From assembly GCA_963775465.1 (NCBI GenBank), contig CAVZIW010000008.1, positions 64,001-128,000 of the forward strand: 64,000 bases of DNA, read 5' to 3'. Below, piece by piece: positions 23,322 through 38,967 of the stretch; position 1 is the stretch's first letter; each line of letters opens with the position of its first letter. The translations under genes and the position numbers were made by a program. The notes beneath the pieces were generated by a model. The model saw nothing but the letters and a program-made list of their open reading frames with translations. It did not search any database and was not told the origin of the DNA. This DNA is from Candidatus Bathyarchaeota archaeon. GTDB taxonomy: Archaea > Thermoproteota > Bathyarchaeia > Bathyarchaeales > Bathycorpusculaceae.

Positions 23322-23642
23322 ATGAGTACTCGTTACGTTTTGGTTTTGGTTACCACAAAAGATAAAATAGAAGCTGAAAAAATCGCGCAGAAACTTTTGA
23401 AAGAAAAACTTGTCGCATGTGCAAATATAATTGATCCTGTTACTTCACATTTCCATTGGTCGGGGAAAATCGACGAATCCAAAGAGTGTTTAATAATCAT
23501 GAAATCTCGAATAGATCTTTTTTCTGAGCTAGCTGGGATTGTAAAGGATTTGCATAGTTACAAGGTTCCCGAAATTCTAGCCATCCCGATTGTAGTTGGT
23601 TCGGATGATTACCTAACTTGGATTAATGAAACTCTCAAATAA
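23322..23642 (+). CDS. cutA: Divalent-cation tolerance protein CutA
   Basis: LVACANI, S.F.W.G, HSYKVPEILAIP and YLTW motifs. Confidence 0.9.
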   Translation: MSTRYVLVLVTTKDKIEAEKIAQKLLKEKLVACANIIDPVTSHFHWSGKIDESKECLIIMKSRIDLFSELAGIVKDLHSYKVPEILAIPIVVGSDDYLTWINETLK

Positions 23643-23650
23643 CGTACACA

Positions 23651-23706
23651 TGTACAAAAATGTGCAAATAAGCCTTAAATAGTACAGTTCTGTATTGATG
23701 TGAACT
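23651..23706 (+). promoter_or_regulatory. trp operon promoter with phased TGTACA-like (TRP-box-like) sites
   Basis: TGTACA 23651, TGTGCA 23661, TATA-like CTTAAATA 23674, AGTACA 23681 and TGTATT 23691 fall in a 10-bp register. Confidence 0.6.
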
Positions 23707-23725
23707 AACACGGAGATCGACTGCA

Positions 23726-25122
23726 ATGGGGAATCGTCTTTGGCACAACCAAACCAAAAAACAAACTACATATTAAAAAAATCAACCTAAGCCAAACCCC
23801 ACTAGAAATATTCTCAAAACTCCAAAAAAAATACCCAACAGTCTACCTCCTCGAGTCTATCGAAGGACCACAAAAACTAGCCCAATACTCCTTCATCGGA
23901 TTTAATCCAAAGACCACAATTCAAATTACTAAAGGCAAAGCAAAAATAACCGACACCCAAACCCAAAAAACCACAACTGAACAGACAAACGATCCTCTAA
24001 AGCTGATCCAAAAACTACTCGAAAAAAATTCTCTTCAACACACTCAACTAAGATTTGTTGGAGGCGCAGTAGGCTACATTTCTTATGACGCTATTCGCTA
24101 CTGGGAAAATCTACCTCATAAAAACAAGAATTGTGATTTTCCAGACATAGAGTTTGGAATTTTCGAGGACGGCCTAATAATAAACCATATCGAAAATCAG
24201 GCTCTATATTATCATCGAAATGAAAATAGGCTTGCAGAAGTTGAAGATCTACTAAAAAAGCCTTATGAGCCCAACTTGCTATCTTGCACTCACCCAAAAG
24301 TTGAAACCACTAAAGAAAAATATGAAAAAGCAGTTGAAAAGGCCAAAGAATACATCAATGCAGGAGACATCTTCCAAGTTGTCCTCTCCAAACGTTTTCA
24401 ATTTAAACTGCAGGGAAGCCTAATTCCCTTCTATGAAGCGCTTAGAACAATCAACCCTTCCCCATACATGTATTACCTCAAGTTTGGTAAACATCAAATC
24501 GTTGGCTCTAGTCCTGAAATGCTTATCCGCGTCGACAATCGCATGGTCGAAACTTTTCCAATTGCTGGCACTAAACCCATTGCCAAGACACATGCAGAAA
24601 ACTCCAAATTAGCTACTGAATTACTCGCTGATCCAAAAGAGTGTGCAGAACATGTTATGCTTGTGGATCTTGCTCGAAATGATCTTGGTCGAATTTCAAA
24701 ATACGGCACAGTTAGCGTACCAGAGTTTATGAAGGTTCACCAATACAGTCACGTTCAGCATATCGTCTCACAAGTTGTTGGAGAACTAAAAGACGAGCTG
24801 CAAAGTTATGATGCAGTTAGAGCAGTGTTTCCCGCAGGAACCGTTTCAGGGGCACCGAAGGTTCGCGCTATGGAAATCATCGATGAACTTGAAACATCTG
24901 CCTAGAGGACCCTACGCCGGAGCGGTCGGGTACTTCTCCTACAATGGCAATGCCGATTTTGCCATAACGATTCGCACATTATTTGCCGACGAAAACAAAG
25001 GCTACCTTCAAGCAGGGGCAGGCATCGTTGCAGACTCTGTCCCAGAACGAGAATGGTTTGAAACAGACTACAAGGCAAAAGCGCTTATAAGCGCTCTTGA
25101 AATAGCTGGGGGCAAAAAACCA
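23726..25122 (+). CDS. trpE: Anthranilate synthase component I; needs a +1 shift near 23740 and another near 24902 as sequenced
   Basis: The open frame 23709-24905 encodes YLLESIEG..LAQYSFIG, GGAVGYISYD, GDIFQVVLS, NPSPY, HVMLVDLARND and FPAGTVSGAPK. The C-terminal RGPYAGAVGY..QAGAGIVADS lies in the next frame. Confidence 0.88.
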
Positions 25123-25707
25123 CTGAAGGTTCTTGTCATTGATAATTATGATTCTTTTGTCTATAACCTTGTACAATACATTGGTGAACTGGGCGCACAA
25201 ACAATCGTTTTTCGAAATAACCAAATAAGCCTCGTAGACGCAGCCAAGCTAAAGCCTGACAGAATCGTTATTTCACCAGGTCCAGGAAACCCTGAAGACG
25301 AAAAATACTTCGGCGTTTGTACCCAAATCCTCCAAACCCTCAGTCCAGTCATCCCCACATTGGGCGTCTGCTTAGGGCACCAAGGAATAATTCACGCTTA
25401 CGGCGGAAAAATAATTCACGCCAAAAAACTCATGCATGGAAAGACCTGCACCATAAAACACAGTCAAAAAGACATATTTGCCGGAGTTCGCAATCCCTTC
25501 AACGCAACAAGATACCACTCCCTCGCGGGCTCAAGAGACTCAATCCCCGACTGTCTTGAAATCACCGCCGAAGCAATTGACGACAACGAAATCATGGCAA
25601 TAAAACACGTCAAATACCCCATTTACGGAGTTCAATTCCACCCAGAATCAATCCTATGCGAAGACGGCAAGCTTATAATCAAAAATTTCTTGGAGCGAAA
25701 ACTATGA
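25123..25707 (+). CDS. trpG: Anthranilate synthase component II (in frame with the TrpE C-terminus; CTG start or fusion)
   Basis: VIDNYDSF, SPGPG, GVCLGHQ, RYHSL and GVQFHPES motifs. Confidence 0.92.
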   Translation: MKVLVIDNYDSFVYNLVQYIGELGAQTIVFRNNQISLVDAAKLKPDRIVISPGPGNPEDEKYFGVCTQILQTLSPVIPTLGVCLGHQGIIHAYGGKIIHAKKLMHGKTCTIKHSQKDIFAGVRNPFNATRYHSLAGSRDSIPDCLEITAEAIDDNEIMAIKHVKYPIYGVQFHPESILCEDGKLIIKNFLERKL

Positions 25708-26762
25708 TGATTCGTGAAGGAATACAAAAAATCGTCGACGGCAACAACCTAAACTCGGATCAATCAAAACAAATAATGAATGAAATCATGACAGGAAAAT
25801 CGACCAACGCACAAACAGCTGCCTTTCTAACCTCCCTTCGCATGAAAGGAGAATCAACAGATGAACTAATCGCTTTCGCGTCAATTATGAGAACTAACTG
25901 CTGCACGATACACCCCAAAGTTCAAGGAAGACTAATTGACACATGCGGAACAGGCGGAGATAAAATCAAGACCTTTAACGTCAGTACAACAGCCGCATTC
26001 GTTATCGCAGGTGCAGGAATCGCAGTAGCCAAACATGGAAATCGAGCAGTTACAAGCAAAAGCGGTAGCGCTGACGTTCTAGAAAAACTAGGCTTAAATC
26101 TAAAAATGGAGCCAAAACAAATCGAAAGAGTAATCGAAAAAGTCGGCGTTGGATTCATGTTTGCCCCTCTTTTTCACCCAGCCATGAAATATGCAGCTGA
26201 AGCCAGAAGAGACATCGGTATCCGAACAGTCTTTAACGTTCTCGGACCGATGACAAACCCAGCATGCGCCGACGCTCAGCTATTGGGCGTTTATGACCAC
26301 AAAATGGTTGCAACAATCGCTTATGCGTTACAGCAACTTGGAAGCAAAGAAGCAATGGTCGTTTATGGTCTCGATGGACTGGATGAGATTTCGACAATAG
26401 GAAAATCACTCATTGCCCACTTGAAAAACGGAAAAGTTACAGAATCAGAATTCACCCCAGAAGACTTTGGAATCAAAAAAGCAAACATTGCCGATTTGCA
26501 GGCATCCACACATGAAGAAAACGCAGAAATTATAGTTAAAATCTTGAAGGGAGATTCGACAGTAAAAACAAAAACTGACATAGTATTGGTGAACAGCGCC
26601 GCCGGAATTATAGTAGGCGGGAAGGCAGATAACTTCAAGGAAGCCATCCAAATGGCAAAAGAATCGATTCAAAACGGATGCGCATATGCTAAACTCAAGG
26701 AATTGGTTGAAATAACTGGCGGAAACCCCCAAATGCTTGAGGAGATGGAAAGAGAAGGATGA
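25704..26762 (+). CDS. trpD: Anthranilate phosphoribosyltransferase
   Basis: DTCGTGGD, NVST, KHGNR..TSKSGSAD and GLDE motifs. Confidence 0.95.
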   Translation: MMIREGIQKIVDGNNLNSDQSKQIMNEIMTGKSTNAQTAAFLTSLRMKGESTDELIAFASIMRTNCCTIHPKVQGRLIDTCGTGGDKIKTFNVSTTAAFVIAGAGIAVAKHGNRAVTSKSGSADVLEKLGLNLKMEPKQIERVIEKVGVGFMFAPLFHPAMKYAAEARRDIGIRTVFNVLGPMTNPACADAQLLGVYDHKMVATIAYALQQLGSKEAMVVYGLDGLDEISTIGKSLIAHLKNGKVTESEFTPEDFGIKKANIADLQASTHEENAEIIVKILKGDSTVKTKTDIVLVNSAAGIIVGGKADNFKEAIQMAKESIQNGCAYAKLKELVEITGGNPQMLEEMEREG

Positions 26763-27535
26763 CCGACTTCCTGGATACCCTTGCAATGGATGCAACTAAG
26801 ACTGTTGACAGTGGATACTACAAAACCGATTCAAAGAAAAAACAGCCAAAAACAAGCCTTAGACAATCAATTCTCAACTGCAAACATAATTCAATCATTT
26901 CCGAAATCAAAGCTGTCTCTCCATCAATAGGAACTATACGAAACAAAATCGATACACCCCAAATCGCTCAAGCAATGGAAAGAGCAGGTTCAGCTGGAAT
27001 CTCAGTTCTAACAGAGCCTAAACACTTCAAAGGCTCCTTAACCGCACTCAAACAAGCAAGAGAAACCACGAAGCTACCAATACTCATGAAAGACATAATA
27101 ATCGTTACCGACCAAATCGAAGTTGGGGCACAAATCGGAGCCAACGCCGTATTGCTAATCCAAGCTCTTTTCGACAGAGACTGCTGTGAAATGAGTGTCG
27201 AAAAAACAATCTCTTTTGCGCACTCAAAAAGTCTTGAAGTATTGCTTGAAACCCACAGCGAATCAGAATTCCAAAAAGCTCTTGAAACAGACGCCGACCT
27301 TATTGGAATCAACAACCGCAACCTCGCGACCCTAAAAATTGACCTGAACACCACAAGACTAATTCTAGAAAAACATAAAGCACCCAATAAGCTGGTCGTA
27401 AGCGAAAGCGGAATAAAGACCCCCCTTGACCTTCAGTTTCTGCGAAGTTGCGGCGCAAACGCTTTCCTCATAGGTTCAAGCATCATGCTCACCGAGAACA
27501 TAGAAGAGAAAGTTACGGAGTTTGTATTGGCATGA
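26759..27535 (+). CDS. trpC: Indole-3-glycerol-phosphate synthase
   Basis: EIK..SPS, ISVLTEP..F.GS, LMKD, GINNRNL and ESGI motifs. Confidence 0.95.
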
Positions 27536-28728
27536 AACTAAGTAACTATCCAGTGGAAGGAAAATTCGGCAAGTTCGGCGGGCGCTTCGTTCCGGAGATC
27601 CTGATGGAAGCCATTACCGAACTCGAGAAAACTTATGGAAAAGTCAAGAAAGATCCAGCGTTCAAAAAAGAACTCAATTACTATTTGGCGGAATTCGTGG
27701 GCAGACCTACACCTCTATACTTTGCTGAGAACCTAACCAAAACTTTGGGCGGAGCAAAAATCTACCTTAAACGAGAAGACCTCGCCCATGGCGGTGCCCA
27801 CAAAATTAACAACACAATAGGTCAAACGCTTCTAGCTAAACGCATGGGTAAAACCCGCGTCATCGCAGAAACGGGAGCGGGGCAACATGGCGTAGCAACC
27901 GCCATCGCATGCGCAGCTTTAGGTCTAAAAGCAGAAGTTTATATGGGAACCGAAGACTGCGAACGGCAACGCCTAAACGTATTTCGAATGAAACTGTTGG
28001 GCGCCAAAGTTCACCCTGTAGATTCAGGCTCCAAAACACTTAAAGACTCCATTAACGAAGCATTTCGCGACTGGGTAACCAACATCGAAACAACCTATTA
28101 CCTGATCGGCTCAGTGGTAGGTCCACATCCTTATCCTTTGATCGTCCGAGACTTCCAAAGTGTAATAGGCAACGAGCTCAAAGCTCAATTTAAACAAAAA
28201 GAAGGCAAACTACCAGATGCGCTAGTAGCCTGTGTAGGCGGCGGAAGCAACGCGATTGGAACCTTCTATTCCTTCGAAGACCACAAACAAGTCGCACTTC
28301 ACGGAGTGGAAGCAGCAGGAGCAGGCATCAAAACCGGAAAACACGCAGCATCACTAGGCGCAGGTTCAGAAGGCGTCTTCCACGGAATGCTAACCTATGT
28401 ACTGCAAGACAAAAACGGCCAAATCGCAAGCACCCACAGCGTTTCCGCAGGCTTAGACTACCCTGGCGTCGGACCCGAGCACAGCTTCCTAAAGATCTCA
28501 AAAAGAGCGCAATATGCATCAATCACTGACAAGGAAGCGGTAGATGCGTTTTTAACATTGTCCAAGCAAGAAGGAATTTTGCCCGCCTTGGAATCATCAC
28601 ATGCAATTGCTTATGCTATGAAGCTAGCGCCAAAAATGAAAAAAACCCAAACTATAGTCGTTACACTATCCGGACGAGGCGACAAAGACGTAGAAACAAT
28701 CGCAAAATTCATCGGTGAAAAAATATGA
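27532..28728 (+). CDS. trpB: Tryptophan synthase beta chain (TrpB1)
   Basis: [35 protein letters not shown] and LSGRGDKD motifs. Confidence 0.97.
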
Positions 28729-29537
28729 ACGCCATAGCCAGAACATTCCAAAAACAAAACCAGCAAGGTAACGCTGTCCTAATCGGCTACATCATGGCAG
28801 GAGACCAAACACCGCAGCAAACACCAGAAATAGCTGATGCCCTTATCCGAGGAGGCGTAGACATTTTAGAATTAGGACTGCCCTTTTCTGACCCAATCGC
28901 TGACGGACCAACAATCCAAGCCGCAAGCATACGCGCTTTAACTTCAAATACAACCCCGCTGAACGTTTTAATAATTGCCAAACAAATAAAACAGAAACAC
29001 AACGACGTTCCGATCGTGATCATGACTTACTTCAATCCAGTTTTCAAAATAGGTCTCAACCTTTTCTGCCAAACAGCCAAAGAAAGCCAAGTTGACGGCT
29101 TTATTATTCCTGATTTGCCCGTTGAAGAAGCAGACGAATACAAGAAAACCGCAGAAACCTACAACATAGACACAATATTTCTAGCTGCCCCATCAACTTC
29201 AAACGAAAGATTATCCAAAATCGTTGCAGCATGTTCAGGCTTTCTGTACCTTATCTCCCATTTTGGCGTGACAGGAACCAAGTCGAACGTTGAAGACTCC
29301 ACAATTCAACTCATTAAACGGGTTAAACCTTTTACCAACGGAAAAGTCCCCTTGGCTGTAGGATTTGGAATATCAAAACCCGAACACATCAGACGAATCG
29401 TAGCAGCAGGAGCTGATGCAACTATCGTCGGAAGTTCCTTCGTAAAAATCATCCAAGAAAATACTAAGACTATGCTTAAAGACCTGCAATCAGCCGCCCG
29501 CGAATTTAAGGATGCCACTAAGATCATAGATTCTTAA
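28725..29537 (+). CDS. trpA: Tryptophan synthase alpha chain
   Basis: [26 protein letters not shown] and VGFGIS motifs. Confidence 0.97.
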
Positions 29538-36521: not shown

Positions 36522-37604
36522 ATGTCAGTTGATGAAGTCCAAAAAAAATATTCAAAACGACCGTATAGATGGAAACTCATACTACTAACCTTAGTAGCCG
36601 CATTAGTCCTTTTTATTATACTTTGTTTGAACGTTGGGTTTGCTCCCATTAGTTTCTCAGACATAATGACTATTATAGGCAAACAAGTGCCCTTTCTCAA
36701 TCAATACATAAACCCATCATCTGTTTCCGTTGTTAATGAAGCCATAATCCTGCAAATACGATTGCCACGTATTTTAGCGGGAGCAATAGTCGGCGCAGGA
36801 TTAGCCGCAGCAGGAGTAATGTATCAAGGTATATTTAGAAACCCAATGGCCGACTCTTACCTGCTTGGTGCGTCAGCAGGCGCCTCTTTTGGCTACACGT
36901 TAGCTGTCTTATACGGTGGAACTCTAGCCGCTAACATTTTAGGGATGGGACTATTCCAAATAGTTGCTTTTTTGGGAGCGGTACTTACCGTATTTCTTGT
37001 TTACTTCATGTCACGAGTTGGAAACAAAGTTCCCATAACAACGCTCTTGCTTTCAGGCATAGTTGTTAACATTTTCATCTTGTCTCTACAAACAGTATTC
37101 GAGCTACGTTCTGGACAAGCATTAATGGGAATTGTAGCTTGGATCGCCGGAGGATTTACCAACATAACTTGGACTAGCATATACACGGTTTTCCCAGTTG
37201 TATTGATTGGGACGGTTCTTGCATATTTCTTCACCAAAGACCTCAACTTGCTATCGATGGGCGACGACACTGCCCAACATCTAGGAGTGAATACAGAAAG
37301 AGTGCGCCAGATTCTTCTGCTGCTGAGTTCTTTAGTTACCGCCGCAGTAGTGTCAATTAGCGGGATAATAGGGTTTGTAGGACTTATCATTCCTCACATG
37401 ACTCGGCTTATTATAGGACCAGACCATCGCATTCTTCTACCCACATCTGCAATCGTCGGAGCTATATTTTTAATACTATGTGACTCTTTAGCAAGGGTTG
37501 CTACAGGAGCCTCTGAGCTTCCAGTGGGCGTTATAACAGCTTTGGCGGGAACACCCTTCTTCATCTACCTGCTTAGAAAACGAAAAACTAGCTATTCATT
37601 ATAA
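36522..37604 (+). CDS. btuC: FecCD/BtuC-family ABC permease
   Basis: IRLPR, FRNPMAD, SAGAS, GFVGLIIPH and ELPVG motifs. Confidence 0.88.
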   Translation: MSVDEVQKKYSKRPYRWKLILLTLVAALVLFIILCLNVGFAPISFSDIMTIIGKQVPFLNQYINPSSVSVVNEAIILQIRLPRILAGAIVGAGLAAAGVMYQGIFRNPMADSYLLGASAGASFGYTLAVLYGGTLAANILGMGLFQIVAFLGAVLTVFLVYFMSRVGNKVPITTLLLSGIVVNIFILSLQTVFELRSGQALMGIVAWIAGGFTNITWTSIYTVFPVVLIGTVLAYFFTKDLNLLSMGDDTAQHLGVNTERVRQILLLLSSLVTAAVVSISGIIGFVGLIIPHMTRLIIGPDHRILLPTSAIVGAIFLILCDSLARVATGASELPVGVITALAGTPFFIYLLRKRKTSYSL

Positions 37605-37617
37605 TGGAGAAAAAAAC

Positions 37618-38967
37618 ATGGTAATACTGTCAGTCGATGGAGTAGAATGCCGTTACGGCTCGATTAAGATTCTAGAGAACGTTAGCTTAACTTTCAAGGA
37701 AGGAGATTTTGTCGGAATTCTGGGACCCAATGGTTCAGGAAAGAGTACACTTCTCAAAAGCATCAGTCGAACCCTCAAACCAACCAAAGGGACTGTGCTC
37801 CTCGACAAAACTGACATTTACGATATGAAAAGTGTTGATTTAGCTAAGCATATGGCCATAGTGCCCCAGGAAAGTAACATCGGCTTTAGCTTCACAGCTC
37901 TTGACATAGTTCTTATGGGACGTAACCCCCACATGAAACGGTTTCAGATGGAATCTGAAAAGGATATGGTGATTGTCCGTAAAGCTATGAAACAAACCAA
38001 CACTTGGCAATTGGCAGACCGACCAATAAATGAACTGAGCGGAGGTGAAAAACAGCGGGTGGTAATCGCCCGTGCACTTGCACAAGAACCAAGAGTCCTG
38101 TTACTCGATGAACCACTAACCCATTTGGATCTAATTAACCAATTAGAGATCATGGATCTGGTTCAGGGCTTGAGTGCAAGGGATCACTTGATTGTTTTGG
38201 CAGTAATTCACGACTTAAACATAGTAGGTCGCTACTGCACCTCAGCTATTCTGCTTAAGGATTCATGTATTTACGCAGCAGGTCCACTTGATCAAGTCTT
38301 GACAAGTGCGAATATTAAAAACGTTTTTCATGTTGACGCCATCGTCAAAAAGAGTCCAGTCACGAATTCACCCTACGTTATTCCGCTCTCACCTCAAAAG
38401 ACCTCGCTTGAACGCAAATGCGCTATCCACATAATATGTGGCGCCGGAACAGGTACTCTGATAATGAAAGCATTAGTGGATGAGGGCTATGTAGTGACAA
38501 CGGGTGTTCTTAACACGTTAGACACTGATTATGAGACTGCTGAACTCCTGAGAATTCCAACAGTAAGCGAGGCGCCATTTTCACCTATAACAAAAGAAAC
38601 GAAGTTAGCAAACTTGGACATGATAAATCAAGCAGCTATCGTTGTTGTTACATCAGTTCCATTCGGGTTCGGCAACCTCTCTAACCTCGAAGCTGCACTG
38701 CAAGCACTGAAACAAGGCACTCGAACATACGTTATCGACGAGATTCCAATCGAGGTGCGAGATTTTACTAATGGTCGAGCAGTAACAATTTTTGCTGAAC
38801 TGCGAAAACAGGGAGCGATATTCATAAAACATCCTTCTGAACTACCCACTCTTGTAAATGCTACTCACAAATCGATTGAATTGTGTAAACTTGGACAAAC
38901 TGAAATTCCAGGTCACTTAAAAGACGCAGTTAAAGTAATGCATTCAAAGAGAAAGGACGCAAAATAA
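37618..38967 (+). CDS. btuD: ABC ATP-binding protein (BtuD/FecE-like) with an approximately 190-aa C-terminal extension
   Basis: GPNGSGKS, LSGGEKQR, LLDEP and HD motifs, plus an extra domain beginning HIICGAGTG. Confidence 0.85.
   Translation: MVILSVDGVECRYGSIKILENVSLTFKEGDFVGILGPNGSGKSTLLKSISRTLKPTKGTVLLDKTDIYDMKSVDLAKHMAIVPQESNIGFSFTALDIVLMGRNPHMKRFQMESEKDMVIVRKAMKQTNTWQLADRPINELSGGEKQRVVIARALAQEPRVLLLDEPLTHLDLINQLEIMDLVQGLSARDHLIVLAVIHDLNIVGRYCTSAILLKDSCIYAAGPLDQVLTSANIKNVFHVDAIVKKSPVTNSPYVIPLSPQKTSLERKCAIHIICGAGTGTLIMKALVDEGYVVTTGVLNTLDTDYETAELLRIPTVSEAPFSPITKETKLANLDMINQAAIVVVTSVPFGFGNLSNLEAALQALKQGTRTYVIDEIPIEVRDFTNGRAVTIFAELRKQGAIFIKHPSELPTLVNATHKSIELCKLGQTEIPGHLKDAVKVMHSKRKDAK

Follow-up and report, generated by a model that had tools for sequence, protein, structure and literature searches.

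A probable tryptophan-sensing +1 frameshift at the start of trpE in a Bathyarchaeia trp operon, and a matching isoleucine cassette

How is translation of trpE begun in an archaeal operon whose trpE frame has no usable start codon? The question is raised by the trp operon of a Candidatus Bathyarchaeota archaeon, found in a 64,000-nucleotide stretch of its metagenome-assembled genome (contig CAVZIW010000008.1, positions 64,001 to 128,000; the whole stretch is called the window, and positions are counted from its first letter). The operon spans approximately 23700 to 29537 and was assigned with NCBIfam profiles as trpE fused to trpG, followed by trpD, trpC, trpB and trpA. The trpE frame is closed by a TAA at 23706-23708 and is open from 23709, and its first ATG, GTG or TTG is a TTG at 24276, 189 codons in. 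An earlier note on this DNA had remarked on the missing start, which the codon count bore out, and had suggested a +1 ribosomal frameshift resembling the autoregulatory site of prfB, the gene of release factor 2 (AGG GGG UAU CUU UGA C). From the sequence comparisons described below, we consider it likely that trpE is expressed through a programmed, prfB-like +1 frameshift six codons into a short leader, and that TrpE is made when tryptophan-charged transfer RNA (Trp-tRNA) is scarce. The parts of the leader are listed here.

23675 to 23681, plus strand: TATA-like box TTAAATA, with AAGCC before it.
23712 to 23715, plus strand: Shine-Dalgarno (SD) sequence GGAG, with a 10-nucleotide spacer to the ATG at 23726.
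23726 to 23776, plus strand: zero-frame leader open reading frame (ORF) MGNRLWHNQTKKQTTY, consisting of ATG, 15 sense codons and TAA.
23728 to 23734, plus strand: internal SD-like element GGGGAAU (leader nucleotides 3-9; consensus RGG-N-AU), ending 3 nucleotides before the shift codon.
23738 to 23744, plus strand: candidate shift site CUU UGG C, with UUU at 23739-23741, the UGG of the aminoacyl (A) site at 23741-23743 and GGC at 23742-23744.
23739 to 24902, plus strand: trpE (anthranilate synthase component I) in the +1 frame, up to an assembly-specific break (TIGR01820 TrpE-arch, E 6e-127).

From the ATG at 23726 the zero frame reads ATG GGG AAT CGT CTT TGG CAC and onward to a TAA at 23774-23776, 11 codons past the TGG. 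trpE lies in the +1 frame relative to this ATG, and a forward move of one nucleotide on CTT T leads into TTT GGC ACA. The positions given in the earlier note for GGAG (23712) and ATG (23726), the 16-residue zero-frame peptide ending at 23776 and the frame arithmetic of a slip from CUU to UUU into the TrpE frame were all confirmed. MGNRLWHNQTKKQTTY is proposed as the predicted product without a shift. In relatives the zero frame ends 2-29 codons past the TGG, and its tail is conserved in neither length nor sequence. Position 1 of the TrpE profile TIGR01820 aligns 21 residues after the TTT at 23739, so the change of frame precedes the conserved domain.

Conservation of the arrangement was examined in a first sample of 100 trpE loci, made up of 20 from related genomes (21 of 31 had a trpE match) and the best 80 of 432 GenBank stretches; removal of 4 duplicates and 1 fragment left 95 distinct loci. 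The cassette was defined as a canonical start, three codons, NUU and UGG, with trpE in the +1 frame, and candidate loci were detected by a TTTGG early in the trpE frame. The strict cassette was present in 88 of the 95 loci, with the start codon (ATG 76, GTG 7, TTG 5) placed exactly four codons before the NTT codon; ordinary in-frame starts were seen in the remaining 7. Over the 88 loci, to which the counts below refer unless another sample is named, the consensus was RTG RGG NAU NNN NUU UGG C. The codon of the peptidyl (P) site was CTT in 44, GTT in 31, ATT in 9 and TTT in 4, so that only N was free to vary and the last two bases always permitted re-pairing on UUU. The base 3' of TGG was C in 68, T in 9, G in 6 and A in 5; the presence of all four bases is as expected of the third base of a glycine codon read in the +1 frame.

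A second sample was drawn from 301 genomes of the phylum, among which 120 had a TrpE at E <= 1e-70; 114 5' regions were taken, leaving out 4 genomes already in the first sample and 2 partial matches. The strict cassette was found in 69 of the 114 loci, and a relaxed form, with the start 2-7 codons before NTT (seen at 2, 4, 5 and 6), in 94, covering 16 of 20 families. In the variant lineages the spacing from the GGUG or GAGG block to NTT was constant and the start position shifted. The 20 loci lacking a cassette belonged to families f23 (8), f33 (8), f42 (1), f56 (1), f30 (1) and f19 (1, at a contig end). Family f19 carried archaeal amoA in all five genomes tested and was therefore taken to be the ammonia oxidisers; it contributed 43 cassette loci, many in closed genomes, with the sequence ATG GGT GGA CAC CTT TGG AAA. 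Contigs titled Jordarchaeia and Odinarchaeia also carried the cassette, binning errors being possible there. The comparison of orthologs found the out-of-frame layout of the earlier note (ATG...CTT TGG, more widely NTT TGG) kept in the first sample, in contigs of four public sequencing runs and in the second sample, and the geometry of the cassette and its conservation can be read from the sequences themselves. Two contigs with bacterial titles (Acidoferrum and Sulfotelmatobacter; loci L029 and L076) bore an archaeal trpE cassette with its promoter and are probably mis-binned.

The position of the shift was located by stop codons in the trpE frame. In 5/88 loci a TAG stands immediately 5' of TTT (TTG GGT GAT TTA GTT TGG), and families f41 and f30 of the second sample also have a stop directly before TTT; in a further pattern, present in 38/88 loci, a trpE-frame TGA overlaps the start codon (A TGA GG), three codons before TTT. 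Where a stop adjoins TTT the frame opens only at TTT, and the change must therefore occur at NUU-UGG. As far as sequence can place it, this is the position that the earlier note had assigned to CUU-UGG, and the stop-before-TTT lineages pin it to the same codons. No canonical in-frame start was found ahead of the conserved LLES motif in 42/88 loci. A shift at codon 2 (GGG-A or AGG-A), or a start at AUH, had been considered on account of third-position-like variation at the genus level and was rejected in general, as some lineages have a stop just before TTT.

The start codon was assigned from the surrounding signals. Genome-wide, GGAG peaks 8-11 nucleotides before ATG starts; the GGAG of the window lies 10 nucleotides before the ATG at 23726 and 17 before the in-frame ATC. 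A purine- and G-rich block is conserved at -14 to -9 in cassette loci. In most loci of the Bathyarchaeia type a TATA-like heptamer starts 46-51 nucleotides before the start codon, which by archaeal promoter geometry suggests a leader of about 20 nucleotides. In the ammonia oxidisers the heptamer ends 22-23 nucleotides before ATG in 23 of 25 loci and an SD-like motif is present in just 3 of 25; both fit an mRNA beginning at the cassette AUG, and on the same geometry the trpE mRNA of this family is predicted to be leaderless. Two loci are natural in-frame versions, ATG AGG AAC CAC CTT GAC AAC... (L009) and ATG AGG AAT AAC ATT TGG GCT... (L064), and share the promoter, the SD sequence and the first five codons with the cassette loci, yet are in frame. 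On these signals the cassette ATG is the start codon.

A second gene of the same genome carries the cassette. A whole-genome scan for the cassette, in which a long +1 ORF lacking an in-frame start had to come after a start codon, three codons and NTT, returned two genes only, trpE and a gene of the CimA/LeuA family. A generic scan without the motif gave 7 candidates in the +1 direction and 9 in the -1 control and is therefore powerless by itself.

71766 to 73317 of contig C2 of the same genome (outside the window), minus strand: CimA/LeuA-family cassette gene (loci L102, L103 and L133).

Its leader reads ATG GGG TAT TGC TTT ATT CAA CCG CTT CCC TAA, and the +1 ORF encodes a LeuA/CimA-family synthase of 513 residues. 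The gene heads a cluster of ilvB, ilvN, leuC, leuD, leuB, a LeuA paralog and pheA. The LeuA paralog has an ordinary ATG and passes the isopropylmalate synthase equivalog cut-off (537 versus 532 bits); the cassette gene, at 508.6 bits, falls under it, which makes a citramalate synthase of isoleucine synthesis a plausible assignment. The isoleucine cassette was found in 22/22 orthologs of the order and in 21/21 further orthologs from eight families, and the sixth zero-frame codon was the isoleucine codon AUU or AUC in 43/43. Exchange between AUU and AUC is silent in the zero frame and switches Phe and Ser in the +1 frame. A tandem AUC AUC was present in 4 of the 21 further loci (L284, L287-L289). 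In two others (L296 and L297, from genomes G046 and G053) two isoleucine cassettes stand in tandem within one zero frame.

Candidates beyond these two genes were also inspected. The ammonia-oxidiser pattern ATGGGTGRNNNNNTT gave 62 matches in 5 genomes, and among the 30 loci read trpE alone had a long +1 ORF behind a short zero frame. One locus (L260; G230:C1:398950-398964, minus strand) reads ATG GGT GGA CGA TTT CGA; its zero frame has 10 codons, and its small +1 ORF, of 122 codons, also has an in-frame GTG. The locus may be a cassette or a chance occurrence. An ABC-transporter ATPase ORF at 37537-38967 of the window, which the scan had flagged and whose frame is open for a long way ahead of its ATG, was rejected as having an ordinary start and no frameshift.

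The A-site codon names the end product of the pathway in both operons, and two sensor codons in two operons support amino-acid sensing. The proteins of the trp operon (23739-29537) contain 3 tryptophans in 1948 residues, or 0.15% against 1.19% genome-wide, approximately 8-fold fewer. One tryptophan codon stands in the six-codon leader, and it is exceptional because the operon is otherwise nearly free of tryptophan.

Within the SD-like element of the leader, G5 was conserved in 88/88 loci, G6 in 82, A8 in 86 and U9 in 85, and nucleotides 7 and 10-13 varied. The RGG-N-AU pattern is a pattern of nucleotides, independent of codon phase. The 16S ribosomal RNA of the genome of the window ends at its 3' side in ...GGAUCACCUCCU. 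The variants GGUGAU and GAGGGAU are complementary to the 16S 3' sequence AUCACC(UCC), and some lineages have a perfect GGUGAU or GAGGUGG. If the element is read as GAGG at nucleotides 3-6, it lies 6 nucleotides from the P-site codon and 7 from the +1 codon; in the genome, spacers from GAGG to ATG have their mode at 7 (count 44), and a spacer of 6 is rare (count 6). The element probably pairs with the 16S 3' end and would favour the forward move, as in prfB.

No stimulatory structure was found downstream of the site: the 60 nucleotides after TGG had a mean minimum free energy of -3.3 kcal/mol (z -0.55). Folding of the same 60 nucleotides gave no terminator or antiterminator hairpins, a terminator scan not having been run. 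Over these 60 nucleotides (window 23745-23805 and the matching region of the 88 loci), G makes up 9.6% of the bases, compared with 21.9% for the gene body. The sequence is rich in A and C, is unstructured and codes for a variable linker of Thr, Gln, Lys and Pro. tRNA-Leu(GAG) is present in the genome; tRNA-Trp was missing from the ARAGORN output, the program having been run without an intron search.

Several observations weigh against a frameshift or temper the case for one. The ammonia oxidisers have an in-frame GTG at leader nucleotides 5-7, from which a shift-free TrpE could start, so that this clade is ambiguous taken alone. About 12 Bathyarchaeia loci have an in-frame ATG or GTG directly before TTT (nucleotides 11-13). 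Within the genus of the window, the few sites that vary between ATG and TTT are chiefly third codon positions in the trpE frame (GGA/GGT, ATC/ATT, GCC/GCG), which would also fit translation in that frame from GGA onward, and in the 88 loci nucleotide 10 is never G (0/88). All four points would suit a TrpE that starts in frame inside the cassette, at AUC, AUU or AUA, at GUG or occasionally at AUG, with the zero frame as a regulatory upstream ORF or with RTG-RGG-NAU as its SD sequence. Such a start is nevertheless unlikely. The codon-phase pattern between ATG and TTT was not seen in the wider sample of 88 loci; the lineages with a stop directly before TTT are left with no in-frame start at all, and nearly half of the loci (the 42 noted above) have no canonical one before the conserved domain. 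The GGAG is too far from ATC for the genomic peak and well placed for ATG, and an in-frame start would leave unexplained both the fixed NUU-UGG and the in-frame variants L009 and L064.

The conservation counts carry reservations of their own, since the cassette loci are relatives and do not amount to independent trials, and since the use of TTTGG as the search criterion makes the invariance of UU-UGG partly one of construction, which does not apply to the position of the start. The GGGGAAU of the window pairs imperfectly with the anti-SD sequence and the spacing argument depends on the register assumed, so that a prfB-like push from the element is something we infer. A 2021 review, in the portion available to us, lists just one experimentally demonstrated frameshift in archaeal cellular genes, a -1 case, and mentions a predicted one in magnesium chelatase (PMC8211752). 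Were the shift at NUU-UGG constitutive, setting a low fixed level of TrpE or adding an N-terminal tag, with UGG merely a slow codon read by a single tRNA, all of the structural evidence for frameshifting would fit equally well. We regard this as improbable, because both genes have in the A site a codon for the product of their pathway (UGG, and AUY in 43/43), AUY is no rare single-tRNA codon and the operon is depleted in tryptophan codons about 8-fold. Much the least probable explanation, with hardly any weight left to it, is an assembly or sequencing indel (an extra G in GGGG) or a decaying pseudogene. The same gene does contain a real assembly-specific surplus base at 24900-24902, but the contigs of four public runs, each from a different study and 90-99% alike, span 23600-23841 with no indels, the only nearby differences being 23723 G>A and 23769 C>A; the layout recurs in 88 and 94 loci across many assemblies, closed genomes included; and the rest of the operon is intact. 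The earlier note had allowed for one G too many in GGGG, and this single-base error was rejected: the orthologs conserve the layout, the four independent runs are free of indels in the leader, and the in-frame form with three Gs occurred in no locus or run examined. Its other alternative, an in-frame CTG start at 23721, was also discarded, as the codon is not conserved: the change 23723 G>A makes it CTA in all four runs, and L021, the closest relative, has CTA as well.

The programmed frameshift would work as follows. Ribosomes would initiate at the SD-led ATG at 23726 and decode GGG AAU CGU CUU. Peptidyl-tRNA-Leu would then wait on CUU with UGG in the A site, which needs Trp-tRNA. When Trp-tRNA is plentiful, UGG would be decoded, the ribosome would stop after 16 codons and no TrpE would be made. 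When it is scarce, the A site would stay empty and the P-site tRNA could re-pair on UUU, with GGC as the next codon, and translation would continue into TrpE-TrpG; the remainder of the operon would follow, probably through translational coupling. Pairing of RGG-N-AU with the anti-SD sequence would help the forward re-pairing. The slip itself and its dependence on tryptophan are what we infer from the arrangement of these parts.

The proposed site would resemble that of prfB in several ways: a P-site CUU would re-pair on UUU because the A site fills slowly, and the slow step would report a shortage that is relieved by the downstream product. Both sites have an SD-like element (a putative one here) within a few nucleotides before the slip, a C after the A-site codon and a zero frame that is soon closed. 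The two differ in that prfB has the stop UGA in the A site, where trpE has the sense codon UGG and the CimA-like gene AUY; the proposed sensor is a charged tRNA in place of a release factor; the site lies 5 codons from the start, compared with 25 in prfB; the P-site codon varies (CUU, GUU, AUU, UUU); and the host is an archaeon. Yeast Ty1 (CUU AGG C) also has a seven-base site at which tRNA-Leu slips +1 on CUU before a slow A-site sense codon. In Ty1, however, it is the rarity of the tRNA that slows the codon, and the shift serves to fix the Gag:Pol ratio, whereas here the codon names the end product and would act as a feedback sensor, and the SD-like stimulator has no counterpart in Ty1. The site would work like those of prfB and Ty1 and, because its A-site sense codon is tied to the pathway, is a member of neither class. 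As in bacterial trpL attenuation and T-box control, a short leader ORF with a tryptophan codon stands before trpE and would report charged tRNA-Trp, and the isoleucine codons, tandem in some lineages, recall ilv-type leaders. Unlike in trpL, no terminator or antiterminator hairpins were seen, the leader overlaps trpE and the output would be a change of reading frame. Antizyme (OAZ), as treated in the available portion of the 2021 review (PMC8211752), is likewise a metabolic sensor in which a programmed +1 frameshift closes a feedback loop; its shift takes place at a stop codon, with a small molecule and a downstream pseudoknot, in eukaryotes.

Downstream of the leader and upstream of its promoter, the following features were annotated.

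23651 to 23656 (TGTACA) and 23661 to 23666 (TGTGCA): two TGTACA-like half-sites adjoining the promoter on its upstream side, which may form the operator of a transcription regulator.
24900 to 24902, plus strand: one surplus base, which breaks trpE and leads to a TAG at 24903-24905.
24904 to 25707, plus strand: C-terminal part of TrpE fused in frame to TrpG (glutamine amidotransferase; TIGR01820 385-449, TIGR00566 trpG_papA).
25656 to 26762, plus strand: trpD (TIGR01245).
26759 to 27535, plus strand: trpC (NF001377).
27535 to 28728, plus strand: trpB (TIGR00263).
28725 to 29537, plus strand: trpA (TIGR00262).

The ends of trpD, trpC, trpB and trpA overlap or abut (25656 to 29537). TIGR01820 matches 23739-24902 with its positions 1-382 (424.6 bits) and the sequence from 24907 onward with positions 385-449 (92.4 bits); the break at 24900 leaves either piece by itself short of the 512-bit cut-off. 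The earlier note had counted three other +1 errors in the window, and the surplus base is one of these: it is the sole indel relative to L021 (94.4% identical over 4176 nucleotides), and all four public runs are without one base at 24900/24901. The break is therefore assembly-specific; it has no connection with the cassette and reflects an error of assembly or else a mutation of very recent date. In the lineage of the window the fusion of TrpE and TrpG is real, with unbroken ORFs of 661 residues in L021 and 664 in L022; most relatives have a separate TrpE of 470-490 residues. As to the half-sites, TGTACA was found within 130 nucleotides upstream in 47 of 87 cassette loci, and in the paired form in 20 of 87. 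The TGTACA and TGTGCA half-sites resemble what we take to be the TrpY operator ('TRP box') of methanogens; a literature search for the TrpY box sequence returned nothing relevant.

To our knowledge, the sensing of charged tRNA in the control of archaeal amino-acid biosynthesis is largely unknown, classical bacterial attenuators and T-boxes being lacking. In the portions available of two reviews, from 2021 (PMC8211752) and 2016 (PMC5009743), tryptophan, anthranilate and isopropylmalate were not linked to frameshifting. Full-text literature searches, with subscription journals outside their scope, found no frameshift in trpE, anthranilate synthase or isopropylmalate synthase. If true, the shift would be the first conserved +1 programmed frameshift in archaeal cellular genes, and the first natural frameshift known to us in which a sense codon for the product of the pathway itself serves as the sensor. 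In hundreds of archaeal genomes, gene callers will mis-start or truncate these two genes, trpE and the CimA-like one, or flag them as pseudogenes, and such miscalls distort metabolic reconstructions, for example by a false tryptophan auxotrophy. Ammonia oxidisers with amoA, among which there are cultured strains, carry the cassette, and this makes the idea directly testable.

On balance, and with less assurance than for trpE itself, we favour the view that the two genes share a modular archaeal 'frameshift attenuator', in which a start codon, RGG-N-AU or GGUGAU, a 3-nucleotide spacer, NUU and a sensor codon for the end product allow the enzyme to be made only when the charged tRNA is scarce. 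Such a module would be old and widespread, being found in Bathyarchaeia, in ammonia-oxidising Nitrososphaeria and, by title, in some Asgard bins. Further amino-acid operons may carry it as well, and it would correspond in archaea to the attenuation and T-box control of bacteria.

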